31,128 bases of DNA, taken from contig DAIDAW010000001.1 in assembly GCA_027310425.1 (NCBI GenBank), positions 1 through 31,128 of the forward strand, read 5' to 3'. The notes under the pieces were generated by a model. The model made no database searches. It had not been told where the DNA came from and saw only the letters and a program-made list of their open reading frames with translations. Positions 13,166 through 21,107 of this stretch are shown here, piece by piece (position 1 is the first letter of the stretch; the number at the start of each line of letters is the position of its first letter). Origin of the DNA: a bacterium. Lineage in GTDB: Bacteria > Patescibacteriota > Minisyncoccia > UBA6257 > Brennerbacteraceae. The position numbers were made by a program, and so were the translations under genes.

Positions 13166-13432
13166 TTATCGTGTTTCGCCGACGAGTTTCGCAACCCGGG
13201 AAAAACGGCGCGGATCGTTGGTCTTGAGCCAGTTCATGAGCCGTTTGCGTTTGATAATCATCTGCAGCAAGCCTCGTCTGCTCGACGCATCTTTTTTGTG
13301 CATTTTCAAATGCGCCGAGAGTTCCTCGATGCGCTTGTTCAGGAGCGAAATTTGCACTTCGGCGGATCCGGTATCGGTCGCATGCCGCTGCACTTTTTTC
13401 ACCAGTTTTGTTTTTGCGGTTTTCGTAAGCAC
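13166..13432 (-). CDS. rpsO: 30S ribosomal protein S15
   Basis: DTGSAEVQISLL, HLKMHKKDASSRRGLL; GTG start. Confidence 0.97.
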   Translation of the reverse strand: MLTKTAKTKLVKKVQRHATDTGSAEVQISLLNKRIEELSAHLKMHKKDASSRRGLLQMIIKRKRLMNWLKTNDPRRFSRVAKLVGETR

Positions 13433-13473
13433 GGTTTAAGTATATCACGGATGTGGATATTTTGAAATATCAG

Positions 13474-14856: not shown

Positions 14857-14863
14857 ATGCCTG

Positions 14864-14900
14864 AAAAAAGCAGCAGCTGCATCATATTGATGCAGCTGCT
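14864..14900 (-). terminator. Intrinsic terminator of the 75-aa membrane gene
   Basis: 13-bp perfect hairpin AGCAGCTGCATCA-TAT-TGATGCAGCTGCT, with a T6 tract shortly after it on the minus strand (A6 at 14864-14869). Confidence 0.8.
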
Positions 14901-14910
14901 TGGTTATTGA

Positions 14911-15138
14911 TTACGGCAAAGATAAGAATAGGACCATGAGAATGCTTGTTCCTAAAATAACAGATCCTGTAAGGCCTATTCCGAAGACATCTTTGGCGAT
15001 TTGCCGACTCCATCCCCATTCTCGACGTTCGGTAATGAACTGAAGCGCAAGCGCGCCTACAAACATTATAAACAATGAAGCGAAGAACGGGATGATCAGT
15101 AGCATCAGAACGATGGCTGCTGAATCTCTGGTATACAT
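14911..15138 (-). CDS. Small membrane protein with two TM helices (75 aa)
   Basis: AAGGAGG Shine-Dalgarno about 5 nt upstream of the ATG, two hydrophobic segments, own terminator. Confidence 0.7.
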   Translation of the reverse strand: MYTRDSAAIVLMLLIIPFFASLFIMFVGALALQFITERREWGWSRQIAKDVFGIGLTGSVILGTSILMVLFLSLP

Positions 15139-15262
15139 ACCTGCCTCCTTCGGCGATTTGATTGCTCTATGAAATCAAAAAACGCGTTACGCGTCAAGCG
15201 CTGGACTGATGCGTGAAAATCCTGTATGCTGGCTACCACATCTTATACAGGAGGCGCCATCT

Positions 15263-15532
15263 ATGAAAAAAATGGCAATCAGTGCGTTGGTTCTGCGCGG
15301 CGAGTCATGCGTCGAGGAAGGTGACATTGCATTGCTCGTACTCATGAGTCTTGACGGTGAACGTCCGGTTGTGCACGTGAGTGAATCCGTTATTGGATTC
15401 GAATCTGTGAAAGCACTCTTCGAGGGGAAGGATCCTGATGACAAAATTCAGATAACGCTTGAGGCGGAATATCCCGAAGATCCCGCGGATTGTTGTTCCA
15501 GCAGCATCAAGCCAATCGCACTATTCATCTGA
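15263..15532 (+). CDS. Small acidic hypothetical protein (89 aa)
   Basis: AGGAGG at 15249-15254, ATG at 15263, terminator directly after the stop. Confidence 0.65.
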   Translation: MKKMAISALVLRGESCVEEGDIALLVLMSLDGERPVVHVSESVIGFESVKALFEGKDPDDKIQITLEAEYPEDPADCCSSSIKPIALFI

Positions 15533-15534
15533 CA

Positions 15535-15558
15535 GAAAACCGCCGTATGGCGGTTTTC
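15535..15558 (+). terminator. Intrinsic terminator
   Basis: GAAAACCGCC-GTAT-GGCGGTTTTC followed by ACTTTTT. Confidence 0.8.
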
Positions 15559-15582
15559 ACTTTTTCCTACATATGCGATGCC

Positions 15583-15611
15583 TTGTAATTATATAGATTA
15601 TATGGTATAAT
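15583..15611 (+). promoter_or_regulatory. Promoter of candidate ncRNA-1
   Basis: TTGTAA (15583-15588), 17 bp, TG-G-TATAAT (-10 at 15606-15611). Confidence 0.7.
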
Positions 15612-15617
15612 ATAACT

Positions 15618-15739
15618 ATACGGTGAGGAGGCAAGGAGAAAACGGCGGCTATGAGCCGCGGACGCCATTGGGCGCAATAAAAATCCTCCCCTCCTCACCA
15701 TTCTAAATATAGAGGCGTTGCCATAAGCGGCGCCTTTTT
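15618..15739 (+). ncRNA. Candidate structured small RNA-1 (~120 nt), unknown class
   Basis: Ends pair: GGTGAGGAGG (15622-15631) with CCTCCTCACC (15690-15699), extended by GGAG/CTCC after a CAA bulge. A-rich internal loop, two apical hairpins, own promoter and terminator. Confidence 0.6.
15713..15739 (+). terminator. Terminator of ncRNA-1
   Basis: AGGCGTTGC-CATAA-GCGGCGCCT-TTTT; two G-U pairs favour the plus strand. Confidence 0.7.
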
Positions 15740-15750
15740 ATTGCACTCAC

Positions 15751-15778
15751 TTGACTTTTCTAGAATTAGTGCTATAAT
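15751..15778 (+). promoter_or_regulatory. Promoter of candidate ncRNA-2
   Basis: TTGACT (15751-15756), 16 bp, TG-C-TATAAT (-10 at 15773-15778). Confidence 0.8.
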
Positions 15779-15783
15779 ATACC

Positions 15784-16172
15784 TATCGTTCTTTCGATAG
15801 TCGGAAGGTTCTGAACAGATTATGTACGTAGTTTGTTCGGAGCCCTCCGGCACACCTTTTTTCCGGAGAGCAAATTCCGCTTCCCGGTGAAGACCGGGAA
15901 CTTATTGATAACGGGCCAGCGCATTTTCCATTCGCACAATCAGGTGCGCGCGCTGAATCTCCTAAGGCGTTTTCTGTGATTCGGTCGCTCCGAACACGAA
16001 ACTCTTCGCCTTTCCGTTATCGATCAATTTTTCGCGCGAATTCCGGAAATCCGCGCAAGGGAAAGTTGGGAGAACTTTCCAAGACCTGTGCCGCCAAGCC
16101 TTATGGCGCGGCGGCACAGGGGCAATCTGTTCTTTATACTATATATCGCCCAGCAATTGCTGGGCGTTTTTT
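15784..16172 (+). ncRNA. Candidate large structured RNA-2 (~390 nt), unknown class
   Basis: 23-bp 5' hairpin (15800-15851, one mismatch, five G-U pairs); TTCCCGGT-GAAG-ACCGGGAA hairpin; 11-bp long-range helix 15904-15914/16014-16024; hairpins at ~16062-16082 and 16085-16120; strong promoter and terminator; no credible ORF. Confidence 0.65.
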
Positions 16173-16491
16173 ATTTGCCAAACCGTGACAATCAATGGTA
16201 TATTTACCTTGGCAACAGGTTGCGCAAGCGCATGGTGCTCCTGGCAGCTTCCTTCGCTGCCAACTCCTTTCGTCTACTTGCTCAATGTTCTGCGTTTGCG
16301 CGAGCCGAGCTTTGCCTGTTGCCAGTTCTTTTTCGTCCGATTGGACGCTTATATTAAAAGGCGCGAGCTGATGCCCGCGCCTTTTCCCGTTTTTATAAAA
16401 AGGGGCCGCCATTGCGCGGCCCCATACGATTCTGTGCAAAGAACTGGTGTTCTGCGCCAGAGTGAGCTGAGGCACCCTGGCGCAGAACACC
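16140..16491 (-). ncRNA. Candidate large structured RNA-3 (~350 nt), unknown class
   Basis: 19-bp 5' hairpin (16446-16491); 10-bp long-range helices 16438-16447/16322-16331 and 16315-16324/16210-16219 enclosing several GC-rich hairpins; G-U pairs and A-rich loops favour the minus strand. Confidence 0.6.
16147..16172. terminator. Hairpin terminator shared by converging ncRNA-2 and ncRNA-3
   Basis: CGCCCAGC-AATT-GCTGGGCG followed by T6 on the plus strand; only an AT-rich tail on the minus strand, so weaker in that direction. Confidence 0.7.
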
Positions 16492-16494
16492 GGC

Positions 16495-16522
16495 ATCGTA
16501 GCACGGCAAGGATTTTTTGCAA
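16495..16522 (-). promoter_or_regulatory. Promoter of candidate ncRNA-3
   Basis: Minus strand TTGCAA (16522-16517), 16 bp, TG-C-TACGAT (-10 at 16500-16495). Confidence 0.55.
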
Positions 16523-16525
16523 TCG

Positions 16526-19500
16526 TCAAAGCGATGCGCTATTTTGTGCGCGCGGCGTGCCCAAAATCTGATTTTGGCCCGCGTCAAGACCATTGATGGT
16601 CGTGCCATTATTCGTTTGCCAGTTCGCAGCGAGGTTCCCCGGCGCATGCGCGTCAACGCGTTCCATGCTTGCGTTTGTTGCGTTATCTCCGGCAAACCAG
16701 CCGGCTGTCGCATCGACTTCATCAACAGTGTTGTCATGCGCATCAACAAGAAGCAGGCGTTCGCCGTTGTTGTTCAGCGCGCCGGCATATATCAAATCAG
16801 CAGGAATATCGGAAATGGTCGTATCATTCGTGCGTTCAAGCAGGAAATAGCCGTGCGTGTCGATAGATCCGGTAAGCGCGATATCGAGCGTTGCAGACGC
16901 ATTCGTGAGATGCCAGCCGGAAAGATCAACAGGGCTCTCCGAAGCATTGTACAGTTCCATCCATTCGTCATACGCAGATGTTTGCGTTCCCATCCACGCG
17001 ATTTCGTTCATGACAACCGATGAACCTGAGATCGGTTGCGGTTCAGAAGTCGGTTGCGGAGATGGGCTTGGCAACGCAAGCGGCGAATATACGGGCGAGA
17101 AATGCCACTGACGCGCATCGATCTGGCGCAGGTACAGGCCGGAACTCGGGCCTGCGTCGTATACGGACATGCTCGTTGTCAGATAATCGTTTGATGTGAT
17201 GAGCGCCGTGTCTTTGGGAATGCTCCAAATCGGCAGACGCACGATCCAAGAACTTTGTTCCGGGAACTGTTTTTGCGCGAGTTCGTTCGGGTTGATTGCC
17301 GTTGTGCTGAATCCGGAAATCGAGCATACGCCGTTGATGGGATAGCGAAATCCCGGTCTGCCGGAAAACGACGAGTTCCAGTCGCACGTGTAGTATTGCA
17401 CCGGCACGAGATTATTCTGGAAATTTTCCAGAAATCCCTCGGCGCCGATTGTGATGTCATAGTTATAGATGAAATCAGCAGTGCTGTTCAGATGAAAGCG
17501 TAATTCGTAACCGTCCGTGCTCCACGAATCCGGAGTTTGAGCAAGCGGCAGCGAATACAGGAATTCAATGCTCCATGCGCCGTTTGGTTCCGGACCCCAG
17601 CGCAGATTTTGCAGATTGGGAATCGGATGCGGTGTGGGATAAACCATCTGAGGAGACGAGGCACTCAGGAATGAGCCGAAATAACGCGTTTGATCGGGAA
17701 TAGGCGTGTCATTGGCGTAGAGCGGCCAGTATGCAAGCGCAAGAAAATCATTTGTGCCGATTTCCCTGCCGAGTGTTTGTTCGAAATGGCTGCGCGTGAT
17801 GCCTGAAGGCGCGTCTGCCTGAAGCCAATTGCTCGTGGAAAGCCGCAGCTGCGTGGGATGAACCACGATGTGCTTTGGGAATTCAGCGCTCTGGCTGTCA
17901 AATGTTCCTTGCCATTCCCAGGTTGTTTCCGAAGGACCATAGATGGGGTTGATCGTGTCTACGAATATACCGGTTTGTCTGGGAATGCTGTAGCGCGGCA
18001 TAATGGTATTGCCGCCTTCTGGTTTTGATTTTGCGGTGAGCGCCAGATCCGTATTCCACGCGGCGACAATCGTGTGGTAATCGTTGTTCGGCAAAAACGT
18101 TTGCGCGTCGAACTGAATCGTGAAAATGCCGCCCGCATCCGATGCCATGCTCGTGTCAAAATACCACGCGACATTGGTGAAGAAATCATTGCGGGATTGC
18201 TGAATCCACGGCGTTGGAGCAGGAGCCGGAGAGGGTGTCGGGAGAATGGTCGGCTCGATCGTCGGCGTAGGCTCAATCGTCGGTTTTGAGGAAGGAGCCG
18301 GTGTTGGTTCGGGCGAGAGGGTCGGTTCGGGAATCGGCGTTGGGCTTGAATTGGAAAATGCGAATGGCGCAGGATTGGTTGGAGGAACATTCGGCGCCTG
18401 TACATTGAGGAATTGCAAAAATTGCTGCGGAGTCGGGGCAGGAGCGTCGGTCTCAAGGAAAAAATTCATGAGCGGAAGCGCTGCGTTTATGTTGCGGATT
18501 TCGTCTTGCGTTGGCGGATTCGCATGTTCCTTTGCAGGATTCGGCAGAATCAGAAAAAGCGGCGGAGAGCTTGGGATTTGACTTGATGGTGTTGTTTCCA
18601 GCGCTTGCTGGTTCGCATTGTAGACAAATACCCGGGCGAATGTGTCCTGCAACGATTGCTGCTGTGTTTGAATCCATTGCAAGATCGAATCAAGCCAGGA
18701 TTGATGCTGTTGGATTTGGTGTTGTTGGGCTTCTTGGAGAAATAATGCAAGTACGCCAGCGCCATGTTGTACTGCTTTCGGGCCAAGACGAGACCAGTAA
18801 TCCTTGTTGATTAGAATGTTGTCTATTGTTGTATCAAAAATATTTCTAGTAATAAGTCCTCCATTTAAAGATTTATTCAATACCAAATGATAATCTCCGT
18901 CGTTATCCTTATCTATCCCATAATAGAATTCACCAATTTTTTCATACATAAGTGGCTCGGGCAGATTATATCCGCTTTGTATGCCGATTGTATCTTTGCT
19001 GTAAAAACCTTTGTTTGAGTAATTCGCAATCGAATCGAAATACTGATTCAAGTTTGCAAATACAACCGGTTGCTTGCTTTGCATATACGTTGCGAACTGC
19101 GTATCGGGATTGGAGAGATTGAATTGCGCTGTCCATTGTTCATACGGGCTGCCTGTTGCATGGCCGTTGTTGCGTGTATGGTCAGGCACGGATGCGTCTT
19201 CGATGAGATGCAGGATATGGCCCAGGGCAAACATCGCTTTTTCTTTGTTCGCGTTTGTCCAGTAGTCAAGCGCGGCATTCCAGGAATAATCGCTTTCCGT
19301 GCTGATCGCGAGCTTTTTCTGCTGGATTGAATCAAGAATTGACGCGATGAGCCCCGCGACTTTGTATGTCGGTTCGTTTTGTTTCGCGCTGTCCTGCGCC
19401 CAGAGCTTTGACGATTCATGCGATGTGCCGATATTCAGTTCCGCGCCAGTGCGCGTGTCGTACGTATAGCCCCGGTTGTATATGGGATCGTAGAAATGAT

Positions 19501-19732
19501 GCAGCCAGCGCGGAGAATCGTCTTCCCTGCGCGAGCCATCGATCAAATACGCTCCCAATTCTTTTGGAAATTGTTCTGCATGTGTTTGGTTATAGAGTTT
19601 GATGATTTCTTGAGTCAAAAACGCATGCGTTTCATAGTCATACGCATGCGTTTGCGAGATATTCCAAAATGTTGTTGCGAAAACAATGAGTGCTGGGATC
19701 AACGAAAGCTTCACAAGCTTTCTATTTTCCAT
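16526..19732 (-). CDS. Secreted multidomain protein (1068 aa): Zn-dependent phospholipase C/S1-P1 nuclease-like N-domain, Pro-rich stalk, unknown middle domain, C-terminal lamin-tail domain
   Basis: Signal peptide then AYDYETHAFLT, WLHHFYDP, LGHILHLIEDASVPDH, SPYE (tri-zinc helical hydrolase pattern); PEPT/PSP repeats; VVMNEIAWMGT..DEWMELYN..LNNNGE is lamin-tail-like. Confidence 0.8.
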   Translation of the reverse strand: MENRKLVKLSLIPALIVFATTFWNISQTHAYDYETHAFLTQEIIKLYNQTHAEQFPKELGAYLIDGSRREDDSPRWLHHFYDPIYNRGYTYDTRTGAELNIGTSHESSKLWAQDSAKQNEPTYKVAGLIASILDSIQQKKLAISTESDYSWNAALDYWTNANKEKAMFALGHILHLIEDASVPDHTRNNGHATGSPYEQWTAQFNLSNPDTQFATYMQSKQPVVFANLNQYFDSIANYSNKGFYSKDTIGIQSGYNLPEPLMYEKIGEFYYGIDKDNDGDYHLVLNKSLNGGLITRNIFDTTIDNILINKDYWSRLGPKAVQHGAGVLALFLQEAQQHQIQQHQSWLDSILQWIQTQQQSLQDTFARVFVYNANQQALETTPSSQIPSSPPLFLILPNPAKEHANPPTQDEIRNINAALPLMNFFLETDAPAPTPQQFLQFLNVQAPNVPPTNPAPFAFSNSSPTPIPEPTLSPEPTPAPSSKPTIEPTPTIEPTILPTPSPAPAPTPWIQQSRNDFFTNVAWYFDTSMASDAGGIFTIQFDAQTFLPNNDYHTIVAAWNTDLALTAKSKPEGGNTIMPRYSIPRQTGIFVDTINPIYGPSETTWEWQGTFDSQSAEFPKHIVVHPTQLRLSTSNWLQADAPSGITRSHFEQTLGREIGTNDFLALAYWPLYANDTPIPDQTRYFGSFLSASSPQMVYPTPHPIPNLQNLRWGPEPNGAWSIEFLYSLPLAQTPDSWSTDGYELRFHLNSTADFIYNYDITIGAEGFLENFQNNLVPVQYYTCDWNSSFSGRPGFRYPINGVCSISGFSTTAINPNELAQKQFPEQSSWIVRLPIWSIPKDTALITSNDYLTTSMSVYDAGPSSGLYLRQIDARQWHFSPVYSPLALPSPSPQPTSEPQPISGSSVVMNEIAWMGTQTSAYDEWMELYNASESPVDLSGWHLTNASATLDIALTGSIDTHGYFLLERTNDTTISDIPADLIYAGALNNNGERLLLVDAHDNTVDEVDATAGWFAGDNATNASMERVDAHAPGNLAANWQTNNGTTINGLDAGQNQILGTPRAQNSASL

Positions 19733-20343
19733 ACATTTGAATAAGTATTGAATCTTAAAAATAATGAATAATCTGCAACACCATCTTTATTCAAAAGTAC
19801 ATAGACAGAACTGTTCTTACCAAAATTTTGATTTATAGATGGTTTCATTTTTTCTACAGTTGAGATTACTGTAGAAATTTCTCCTTTTCTTTGTTTATCG
19901 TTTAATCCATCGATCCATTCCTGGCGCGTAAGATAATATGGGCTTTGCTCGTTGGTGTTGAGCATAAAATACTGGGCAGCTTGTTCCATATCTCCCGTCT
20001 TAAGTGCTGCAAGAAACAGCTGGATGGTTTCTTCCGGAGTTTTTCCTCCCGTGATATCGTTGGCAAGCGCTTGTTTTTGTTCTTCAGCGCGTTGGAGCGC
20101 GATGCGGTCTGTTTCGGAGTTTTCCTTGGCTTGCTGCGGGCTGATGGTATTGATGAGCGCGATGGCGAACATCGCAGCAATGAAAATCACGAATAAGGCG
20201 ATTGCGTAGCGGTACCATGATCGTTTTCCGAACGCGTCCAAACGCGCCGGAAAACGGAATTTCCGGATATTCTGCCTTTCGCTGGGTTTGTTTTGCGCGT
20301 GTTGATCCATGCCAAGAAAGGGCTTGGTATGATTTTCCGCCAC
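19711..20343 (-). CDS. Membrane-anchored hypothetical protein with an NTF2/DUF4878-like periplasmic domain
   Basis: One TM helix, then GGKTPEETIQLFLAALKTGDMEQAAQYF...WKIESL. Its 3' end overlaps the downstream gene by 22 nt. Start uncertain. Confidence 0.75.
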   Translation of the reverse strand: MAENHTKPFLGMDQHAQNKPSERQNIRKFRFPARLDAFGKRSWYRYAIALFVIFIAAMFAIALINTISPQQAKENSETDRIALQRAEEQKQALANDITGGKTPEETIQLFLAALKTGDMEQAAQYFMLNTNEQSPYYLTRQEWIDGLNDKQRKGEISTVISTVEKMKPSINQNFGKNSSVYVLLNKDGVADYSLFLRFNTYSNVWKIESL

Positions 20344-20346
20344 CGA

Positions 20347-20670
20347 CTACAAGATTTGCGCGATGACAAGCGCGATGCCTTTGCTGATGAGTACGATGCC
20401 GAATCCGATTGCGGCGTACACGATAATCATCATTGCCTGATTGAATTTTTCCGGTTTTCCTTCGGAAGTCAAAAGCACGAACGCGGCATAGAGCACGACC
20501 GCGGTAAGGATGGGCACGCTGATTGCGATGAGAAAATTGATTACGCGGTCAAGCAAGCCGCCGATCGTATTCACTTTGAGCGGATTCTCGAACGTGAGCG
20601 CGCCTGCTTGCTGCGTGGATGCGATCGCGATTGCAGCGAGCGCCAGGAAAAGGATAATGCGTTTTGTCAT
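20347..20670 (-). CDS. TrbC/VirB2-like pilin (CPR type)
   Basis: Signal peptide, FENPL motif, two hydrophobic helices separated by TSEGKPEKFNQA. Start set at ATG 20670 below a TTGCCC-16-TACACT promoter. Confidence 0.75.
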   Translation of the reverse strand: MTKRIILFLALAAIAIASTQQAGALTFENPLKVNTIGGLLDRVINFLIAISVPILTAVVLYAAFVLLTSEGKPEKFNQAMMIIVYAAIGFGIVLISKGIALVIAQIL

Positions 20671-20720
20671 AGTACGGATATAGTGTATATGCTTTGCCCC
20701 GGAGGGCAAGAGTGCATAAC

Positions 20721-21107
20721 TTAGCACGAAATTTTATTCCAAAACAGCACGGATCCTTTTGCAAAGAAATTCAAGACCGTGTTGAGAATTACCCATGCGG
20801 AGAGCATAATCGCGAACCCGATGACTCCGTTCGTCAGCTGTTTCATCGCATCTCCGAACGCATGCGGGTTGCCCTTGGAAGCGTAGAGGCTCAATCCCGC
20901 AAGGATCGTCACAAGCGTTACCATAATAAATCCGAGCGCGATGATAAAGTTGACGACTGCCTGCACGGTGGCGAGGAGCGCGCACAGGTTGCAGGATCCG
21001 ATGACTGCTGGGTTGCATTGCACGAGCGCAGCCGATGCGCCATGCAGCGGTACGAAAAGAAACGAGAGAATCGCAATCGCGCCGAAAAGCGCTGGGATGA
21101 TCTTCAT
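20721..21107 (-). CDS. TrbC/VirB2-like pilin (CPR type, Cys-containing N-terminus)
   Basis: Signal peptide, LVQC..CNLCALL, two hydrophobic helices separated by SKGNP, GFAIMLSAWVILNT. Confidence 0.75.
   Translation of the reverse strand: MKIIPALFGAIAILSFLFVPLHGASAALVQCNPAVIGSCNLCALLATVQAVVNFIIALGFIMVTLVTILAGLSLYASKGNPHAFGDAMKQLTNGVIGFAIMLSAWVILNTVLNFFAKGSVLFWNKISC

Follow-up and report, generated by a model that had tools for sequence, protein, structure and literature searches.

The window, the whole stretch of 31,128 nt analysed here, is contig C11 of a 548-kb genome assembly (84 contigs, 91% complete), and its DNA is present in four runs, all from one mine-drainage sample. The nearest named relatives of its NusA come from Parcubacteria-group MAGs. 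About 1 kb of DNA with no credible ORF separates a small orphan ORF (15263-15529, plus strand) from the 3' end of a gene for a lamin-tail-domain (LTD) protein of 1068 amino acids (16526-19732, minus strand). This gap is made up of three promoter-to-terminator units on the plus strand, RNA-1, RNA-2 and RNA-3, with RNA-2, the subject of this study, in the middle. The cluster is placed between the nusA operon and the gene of the predicted secreted LTD hydrolase, and gene order in a relative indicates that this position is conserved.

Two distant relatives (L005 and L086) have the genes for an SBP, two pilins and nusA directly adjoining. The window (14857-20730) and contig L185 (7420-13575) carry an extra block between pilin and nusA, consisting of a gene for a protein of about 200 amino acids, the LTD gene, small ORFs and the RNA cluster. 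Brennerbacteria have the pair of 200-aa and LTD genes at another location, with four small paralogues encoded behind it on the opposite strand. Small acidic proteins of two families, neither with a Pfam hit, are also encoded at these loci. Members of one (89-109 aa, 31% identity) are encoded beside nusA in the window, L185, L206, L208 and L209; the other, with a 'PGDxF' motif (65-92 aa), is encoded convergently directly after the LTD gene in relatives and is absent from the window. Genes for small acidic proteins were located at 15263-15529 (plus strand) in the window, 13174-13464 and 10851-11450 in L185, and 8341-10385 in L201. Such proteins might inhibit the secreted hydrolase or act as its partners. 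No PADLOC defence family was found among five adjacent proteins tested.

RNA-2 (15784-16172) is preceded by the promoter TTGACT-16-TATAAT with a TG extension (15751-15778), which matches the consensus at 11 of 12 positions. This promoter class is rare, with 20 sites in the 548-kb genome (six with TG), and other sites of the class stand upstream of tmRNA and tRNA-Leu. The unit ends at a predicted intrinsic terminator (16147-16172), composed of an 8-bp GC-rich stem (16147-16154/16159-16166), an AAUU loop and six U residues. The MFE of the 389-nt RNA is -174.7 kcal/mol compared with a shuffle mean of -117.3 kcal/mol (z = -10.3), and none of 100 shuffles was as good. Its GC-corrected energy is the lowest of 318 segments of 389 nt across the 31 kb, the plus strand is more stable than the minus strand by 10 kcal/mol, and the MFE pairs have a mean probability of 0.95.

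The 5' leader (15784-15799) contains a 5-bp hairpin, P0 (15784-15788/15795-15799), and is followed by P1, a long 5' hairpin of 23 bp with a GUAC loop (15800-15851; pair probability 0.99). P1 consists of two helices (15800-15805/15846-15851 and 15807-15823/15828-15844) on either side of an A.C mismatch (15806/15845); the inner helix holds five G-U pairs and the outer one more. A pyrimidine-rich linker that is unpaired in the MFE structure (15852-15864) leads to the purine-rich 5' strand of P2 (15865-15878), which closes the core by pairing with 16121-16135 (helices 15865-15872/16128-16135, 15874-15876/16124-16126 and 15877-15878/16121-16122; probability 0.90-0.93). Enclosed by P2 are the 8-bp hairpin P3 (15881-15900; probability 0.96), a three-way-junction domain P4-P5-P6 (15904-16024) closed by a 12-bp helix (15904-15915/16013-16024), P7 (16034-16056) with the palindrome UUCCGGAA in its apex, P8 (16060-16080), formed by GGAAAGUU/AACUUUCC with a GGGAG loop, and P9 (16085-16120), of 11 + 3 bp with a probability of 0.999. 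The 3' strand of P2 includes the 10-mer UCUGUUCUUU (16126-16135), which is paired in the MFE structure of the window with a probability of 0.93, and an AU-rich spacer separates P2 from the terminator. Eight nucleotides of the linker region, UUUCCGGA (15860-15867), are complementary to the apex of P7, UCCGGAAA (16042-16049), and a pseudoknot between them is possible. The original prediction, which described a 23-bp 5' hairpin with five G-U pairs, a multibranch domain, three further hairpins (now P7, P8 and P9) and a terminator, is thus borne out by folding in all of these parts; P3 was absent from its list.

Homologues of RNA-2 were hard to find by similarity. BLAST returned nothing, whether from its own genome, from 40 relatives or from 400 genomes of the order, and there was no match in nhmmer searches over 160 nusA loci or in phage and plasmid collections. 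The route to a homologue was the neighbouring LTD protein, whose best relative (P0003, 60% identity) is encoded on L185 (ENA ERZ27237541, also GCA_021815625.1). Gene order on L185 is that of the window: rny, SBP, two T4SS pilins, the 200-aa gene, LTD, the small-gene/RNA region, nusA, rpsO, NYN and pnp. NusA of L185 is 81% identical to that of the window; GTDB or JGI matches reach 74%. Searching with the window's intergenic region, nhmmer gave collinear matches on L185, where the 3' end of RNA-1 and the promoter, leader and P1 of RNA-2 matched with E = 6e-7. The RNA-2 promoter of L185 is TTGACT-16-TGGTATAAT (12758-12731, minus strand) and a terminator occupies the equivalent place (12319-12296, then T7). 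From promoter to terminator the L185 homologue measures about 435 nt and folds at -185 kcal/mol (z = -7.6), its antisense being 16 kcal/mol weaker.

The 89-aa ORF upstream of the cluster (15263-15529) had no close relatives in an initial search. A profile search with this small protein recovered three distant relatives, whose contigs are too short or end inside P1; one led to L209, which has an RNA-1 homologue, the RNA-2 promoter and leader, and most of P1 up to the contig end. A covariance model of the core built from a single sequence (R1) matched nothing in 150 order genomes and also missed the true homologue in L185, and two P1 models (R2 and R3) matched their training lineages only. By BLAST and these three covariance models, RNA-2 was not found in six other genomes of the same family or in some 150-400 genomes of the order, so any essential role must be lineage-specific. 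The LTD loci of Brennerbacteria (L200-L205) contain small paralogous protein genes and no RNA-2. The RNA-2 family, which is previously undescribed, appears to be narrow, with members in the window's species, on L185, and in the source organisms of L208 and L209 (ENA ERZ27237563).

The TTGACT-16-TGnTATAAT promoter is kept in the window, L185 and L209, and the leader sequence A-U-n-G-U-U-C is kept across lineages. P1 has 27 bp in L185 and is also paired in the assembled part of L209. Comparing the window with L185, 16 pairs of P1 are identical, two have one-sided changes, four have changes on both sides and are still paired, and one pair is lost; the A.C mismatch of the window is a G-C pair in L185, which also has three extra base pairs inserted as whole pairs. 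In an alignment of the window, L185, L209 and a strain variant, 97.4% of P1 cells are paired (31-52% in slid controls) and five pairs are double-changed; none of 500 shuffles reached the covariation score. With three lineages, one of them partial, the covariation reflects few independent events. Neither the centre of P1 (GAACAG/UUGUU) nor four of its G-U positions vary, evidence that an RNA helix is what is selected on this strand. At the 3' end, L185 has an identical copy of UCUGUUCUUU in the corresponding position (12387-12378, minus strand), with a near-copy directly after it. The cores of the two RNAs, including P3, are unalignable. What they share is limited to their overall layout, in which a purine-rich strand on the 5' side and a CU-rich strand on the 3' side close off seven or eight stable hairpins; the closure in L185 is analogous to P2, weaker and not alignable with it. 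L185 has a P8-like hairpin, GGAAAGGG/CCCUUUCC, but elsewhere in the order of hairpins.

Variation among co-existing strains was read from contigs of the four source-sample runs. A second haplotype of approximately equal depth has nine mismatches in 15871-15933, and 98 other letters in place of the 107 nt at 15934-16040, while its flanks hardly differ; it is represented by 220-nt bubble contigs in runs X1 and X2 and by a 576-nt contig in X4. This variable block corresponds to the P4-P6 domain, and the strains differ by the swap of a segment of about 140 nt that contains this domain and the adjoining junction (15901-16040). P1 is changed by strain variants only in its loop, where there is a triple substitution (15824-15826). 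Most strain contigs have a CCTTC insertion in the linker after 15854, and an A>C variant at 16156 falls in the terminator loop. In P0, the pair 15787-15796 occurs as C-G, U.G and C.A, its partners changing in different haplotypes. P0 is therefore unconstrained, in agreement with its absence as a helix in both L185 and L209. Around the RNA-1 promoter (15559-15616), a second strain haplotype has seven substitutions and two one-base insertions in 58 nt, and the flanking coding DNA differs by about 1% between haplotypes.

RNA-2 does not belong to a known RNA family as judged by cmscan with all 4227 families of Rfam 15, none of which reached its gathering score on the region; matches at E <= 10 within 15400-16600 were terminator-driven or miRNA-like chance matches only. 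No match at E <= 10 was obtained with the models for RNase P, OLE, GOLLD, ROOL, HEARO and raiA, the comparison that the original prediction had proposed, and none of the known RNA families tested matches the L185 homologue at E <= 1. CTCCGG (15846-15851) and CCGGAG (15862-15867) are both present. The faint resemblance to RNase P P3-P4 that had been seen in the sequence does not hold up, and a full-length RNase P candidate (RF00010/RF00011) is found elsewhere, at C13:5273-5768, covering model positions 1-367 with E = 1e-11 and 40 bits, below the gathering score. This candidate spans 496 nt against a model of 367 positions; the 16S rRNA match (C12:2851-4779) likewise has 1929 nt against 1533 model positions, so the 16S rRNA carries insertions. 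ARAGORN detected no tmRNA in the window and one elsewhere in the genome. SRP and 6S RNA (RF00013, RF00169, RF01854) had no match in the region or anywhere in the 91%-complete genome, and RNA-2 folds as a wheel of hairpins, not a rod, with neither an SRP helix-8-like loop nor a central bubble seen by eye. A sponge of the CsrB/RsmZ type was rejected because GGA occurs in only two loops (P7 and P8) and a search of the 91%-complete genome did not find CsrA. TIGR and other repeat arrays were rejected because there are no repeats except the similar promoters of RNA-1 and RNA-2. A diversity-generating (DGR) template/variable-repeat pair and a MITE were set aside, as the segment is present only once in the genome. 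The claim of a multi-domain RNA of about 390 nt without a recognisable family is upheld, and gains comparative support from the promoter, the 5' hairpin, the 3' motif and the terminator.

Taken together, RNA-2 is very probably a real, independently expressed structured RNA gene, because its promoter is among the 20 best of the genome, its signals and P1 are conserved against an unalignable background, and hyper-stability is specific to the same strand in both species. Like a trans-acting sRNA, it has its own promoter and intrinsic terminator and no ORF. On balance we favour a stable, independently transcribed non-coding RNA of about 390 nt, the member of a small new family in a narrow Parcubacteria clade, that would work as follows. 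P1 and the terminator would protect the two ends of the RNA and possibly bind a protein, P1 being long enough to offer a site for RNase III or a dsRNA-binding protein. Functional contact would be made through the CU-rich UCUGUUCUUU, which would serve as a protein-binding site or as an antisense seed that pairs with purine-rich (Shine-Dalgarno-like) RNA; the purine-rich 5' strand of P2 would mask it in part. The core would be a fast-evolving scaffold whose exact sequence is unimportant. No conserved target of UCUGUUCUUU was found near start codons in the window and L185 loci, and a duplex scan of the tail against start regions returned spurious ORFs only and nothing common to both species.

Several other explanations were weighed against this account. 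A regulatory switch was at the centre of the original prediction, in which the RNA toggles between the local 5' hairpin and an end-to-end closure that pairs 15813-15821 with 16124-16132. The 9-bp complement exists and is perfect (GAACAGATT, RNA GAACAGAUU; AATCTGTTC, RNA AAUCUGUUC). A second complement, of 10 nt and also perfect, links the other P1 arm to the core (15834-15843/15987-15996), and L185 conserves both AACAG and CUGUU, which form the centres of the 9-bp partners. With these extra complements of 10 and 8 nt, the idea is not absurd from the window alone. On its own, the 9-bp complement is weak evidence; a perfect complement of at least 9 nt occurs somewhere in 16% of mononucleotide shuffles, and one of at least 10 nt in 3.7%. 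When forced, the end-to-end fold has an energy of -159.7 compared with -174.7 kcal/mol, a cost of 15 kcal/mol, its pairs have approximately zero probability in the ensemble, and the MFE partner of 16121-16135 is 15865-15878, not the P1 arm. P1 is also transcribed first, would fold first during transcription and is the most strongly conserved helix, and the core partner of the 10-nt complement sits in the strain-variable domain. In L185, the single full-length homologue, the 9-bp complement shrinks to AACAG/CUGUU (5 bp) and neither P1 arm has a complement of at least 8 nt in the rest of the RNA. The original prediction had itself named loss of conservation of the complement as grounds for giving up the switch, and L185 decides against it; we regard a riboregulator of this kind as very improbable. 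Even less probable is a coding or dual-function transcript with one or more small ORFs. It would account for the Shine-Dalgarno-like boxes (GGAGAG at 15865, and AAGG 8 nt before a GTG at 15976), and the neighbouring RNA-1 contains a 9-codon ORF. The conserved GGAG box, however, has no start codon at a usable distance in either species, the 70-codon frame overruns the terminator and begins in the strain-variable domain, and no ORF is common to L185. ORFs over RNA-2 match no Pfam family and are left uncalled by the gene callers behind public collections, and exact-protein look-ups of these spurious ORFs found no matching protein on record. Least credible of all is that RNA-2 is an unrecognised housekeeping RNA (RNase P, SRP, 6S or tmRNA) or belongs to one of the known families of large RNAs. 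The SRP and 6S roles are formally unfilled, as neither was detected in the genome with Rfam, but no model matches the region or L185 at the thresholds above, the RNase P candidate and the tmRNA lie elsewhere, and an unalignable core at 81% NusA identity together with absence from the rest of the family and order would be unexpected for a universal RNA.

The chief competing explanation takes the core, or all of RNA-2, for a weakly constrained, hairpin-rich spacer. RNA-2 would then be transcribed and essentially functionless, with only P1 and the signals under constraint and with hairpins that are gained and lost through quasi-palindrome or template-switch mutation, or that are remnants of a decayed element. 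A core that cannot be aligned at 81% NusA identity and a domain that is replaced entirely between strains fit this explanation, and a core that can be swapped wholesale is also expected of weakly constrained DNA. The helices are mostly long, perfect and generic, with no recognisable tertiary motifs, and the genome contains many other orphan hyper-structured stretches. Against it, at least three lineages retain about 1 kb of such sequence in a genome of about 0.6 Mb, under one of the strongest promoters there, P1 covaries while retaining its G-U pairs, an invariant 10-mer stands amid unalignable sequence, and extreme stability falls on the same strand in both species; we consider a functionless spacer unlikely. 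Somewhat more doubtful is that the P1 duplex is the active part and the rest of RNA-2 a precursor or scaffold for it. P1 would then be a substrate of RNase III or a site for a dsRNA-binding protein, and the RNA would work as a processed product or a protein sponge, not through its 3' motif. At 23-27 bp, P1 has a length usual for RNase III substrates, neither its centre nor four of its G-U positions vary, and the genome encodes RNase III. This would leave the invariant 3' 10-mer unexplained, and neither of the usual sponge partners, CsrA and Hfq, turned up in the 91%-complete genome. Tentatively, and with hardly any difference in likelihood from the P1-duplex explanation, the locus may instead be a 'handle plus cassette', where a conserved handle (promoter, P1 and UCUGUUCUUU) presents a hairpin core that is swapped between strains under diversifying selection. 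The cassette could be a decoy or specificity module directed against phages, the host cell of the episymbiont or the neighbouring secreted nuclease-like LTD protein; if true, this would be a new kind of hypervariable RNA locus.

The non-coding RNA that we favour resembles several known RNAs in part. OLE, ROOL, GOLLD and raiA are also stand-alone, several hundred nucleotides long, multi-domain and very stable, and were discovered before any biochemical function was known for them. They have conserved, covarying cores across many genera or phyla, whereas RNA-2 keeps only its 5' hairpin, its 10-nt 3' motif and its expression signals, in a few close lineages. The C/U-rich-seed sRNAs of Gram-positive bacteria (LhrC of Listeria, RoxS/RsaE and the streptococcal csRNAs) are 90-200 nt long and expose the seed in loops. 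RNA-2 shares with them its own promoter and terminator, tandem sibling genes and a conserved pyrimidine-rich stretch, a potential partner of purine-rich ribosome-binding sites, but it is about 390 nt long, part of its motif is taken up by pairing in the closing helix, and no target was found. The handle of bacterial Y RNAs (YrlA with Rsr/Ro60) is built from both ends of the RNA, 5' and 3', and their gene lies beside rsr. A conserved helical handle with a variable modular remainder is common to both; in RNA-2, by contrast, the conserved helix is a local 5' hairpin, and there is no rsr neighbour in the window.

Genomes of the CPR/Patescibacteria are about 0.5-1 Mb in size, and this one still spends about 1 kb and strong promoters on three folded RNAs of no known family, an arrangement that close relatives retain. 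The pattern of RNA-2 is unusual: on either side of its core stand a strictly selected helix and an invariant 10-mer, yet the core itself is replaced even between strains of one sample. If RNA-2 is functional, it would be a lineage-specific RNA of organisms whose regulation and host interaction are almost unknown, and P1 and the tail would be targets for pull-down. If it is not, it is a caution that low folding energy in CPR intergenic DNA does not by itself amount to a conserved RNA architecture.

The sibling RNAs are conserved to different degrees. RNA-1 (15612-15745, plus strand) has a homologue in L209 (412-545) with the same promoter type and a terminator, an AAGGAGG box paired with a CU-rich 3' strand, and a GCGGCU...AGCCGC hairpin, and L185 retains the 3' half of RNA-1 only. 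The 9-codon ORF in the window's RNA-1 is not conserved, L209 reading UUG-CGG-CUG-UAA there. The promoters and 5' ends of RNA-1 and RNA-2 are 74% alike over 31 nt. RNA-3 (16175-16396) is best on the plus strand, with the promoter TTGCCA-18-TATATT, a terminator (16356-16396) and z = -5.4; its homologue in L185 (about 11912-11745, minus strand) has the same closing stem, GGCAAC.GG/CC.GUUGCC. All four runs have T at 16375, which changes an A.C mismatch of the window's RNA-3 terminator stem to A-U. Hairpins on the minus strand at 16402-16491 resemble terminators of the LTD gene. L185 has an additional promoter-to-terminator RNA between RNA-2 and RNA-3 (12290-11945, minus strand) with no counterpart in the window; it is preceded by three copies of TGTTTCACG about 30-50 nt apart, possibly a regulator-binding array.

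A genome-wide folding scan revealed many hyper-stable stretches that lie behind strong TTGAyT-17-TGnTATAATATA promoters and match no Rfam family. They include C44:7207-6967 and C44:14703-14526 (both minus strand), C77:12689-13050, C4:14645-15000, C18:748-1100, C9:956-1650, C2:7284-7800, C66:19646-20700 and C17:244-1200. The stretches on C2, C66 and C17 are structured leaders followed by a Shine-Dalgarno sequence and an ATG. Those at C44:7207, C77 and C4 resemble further orphan RNAs, and the one at C44:7207 has an RNA-1-like 13-bp hairpin rich in CCUCC/GGAGG.
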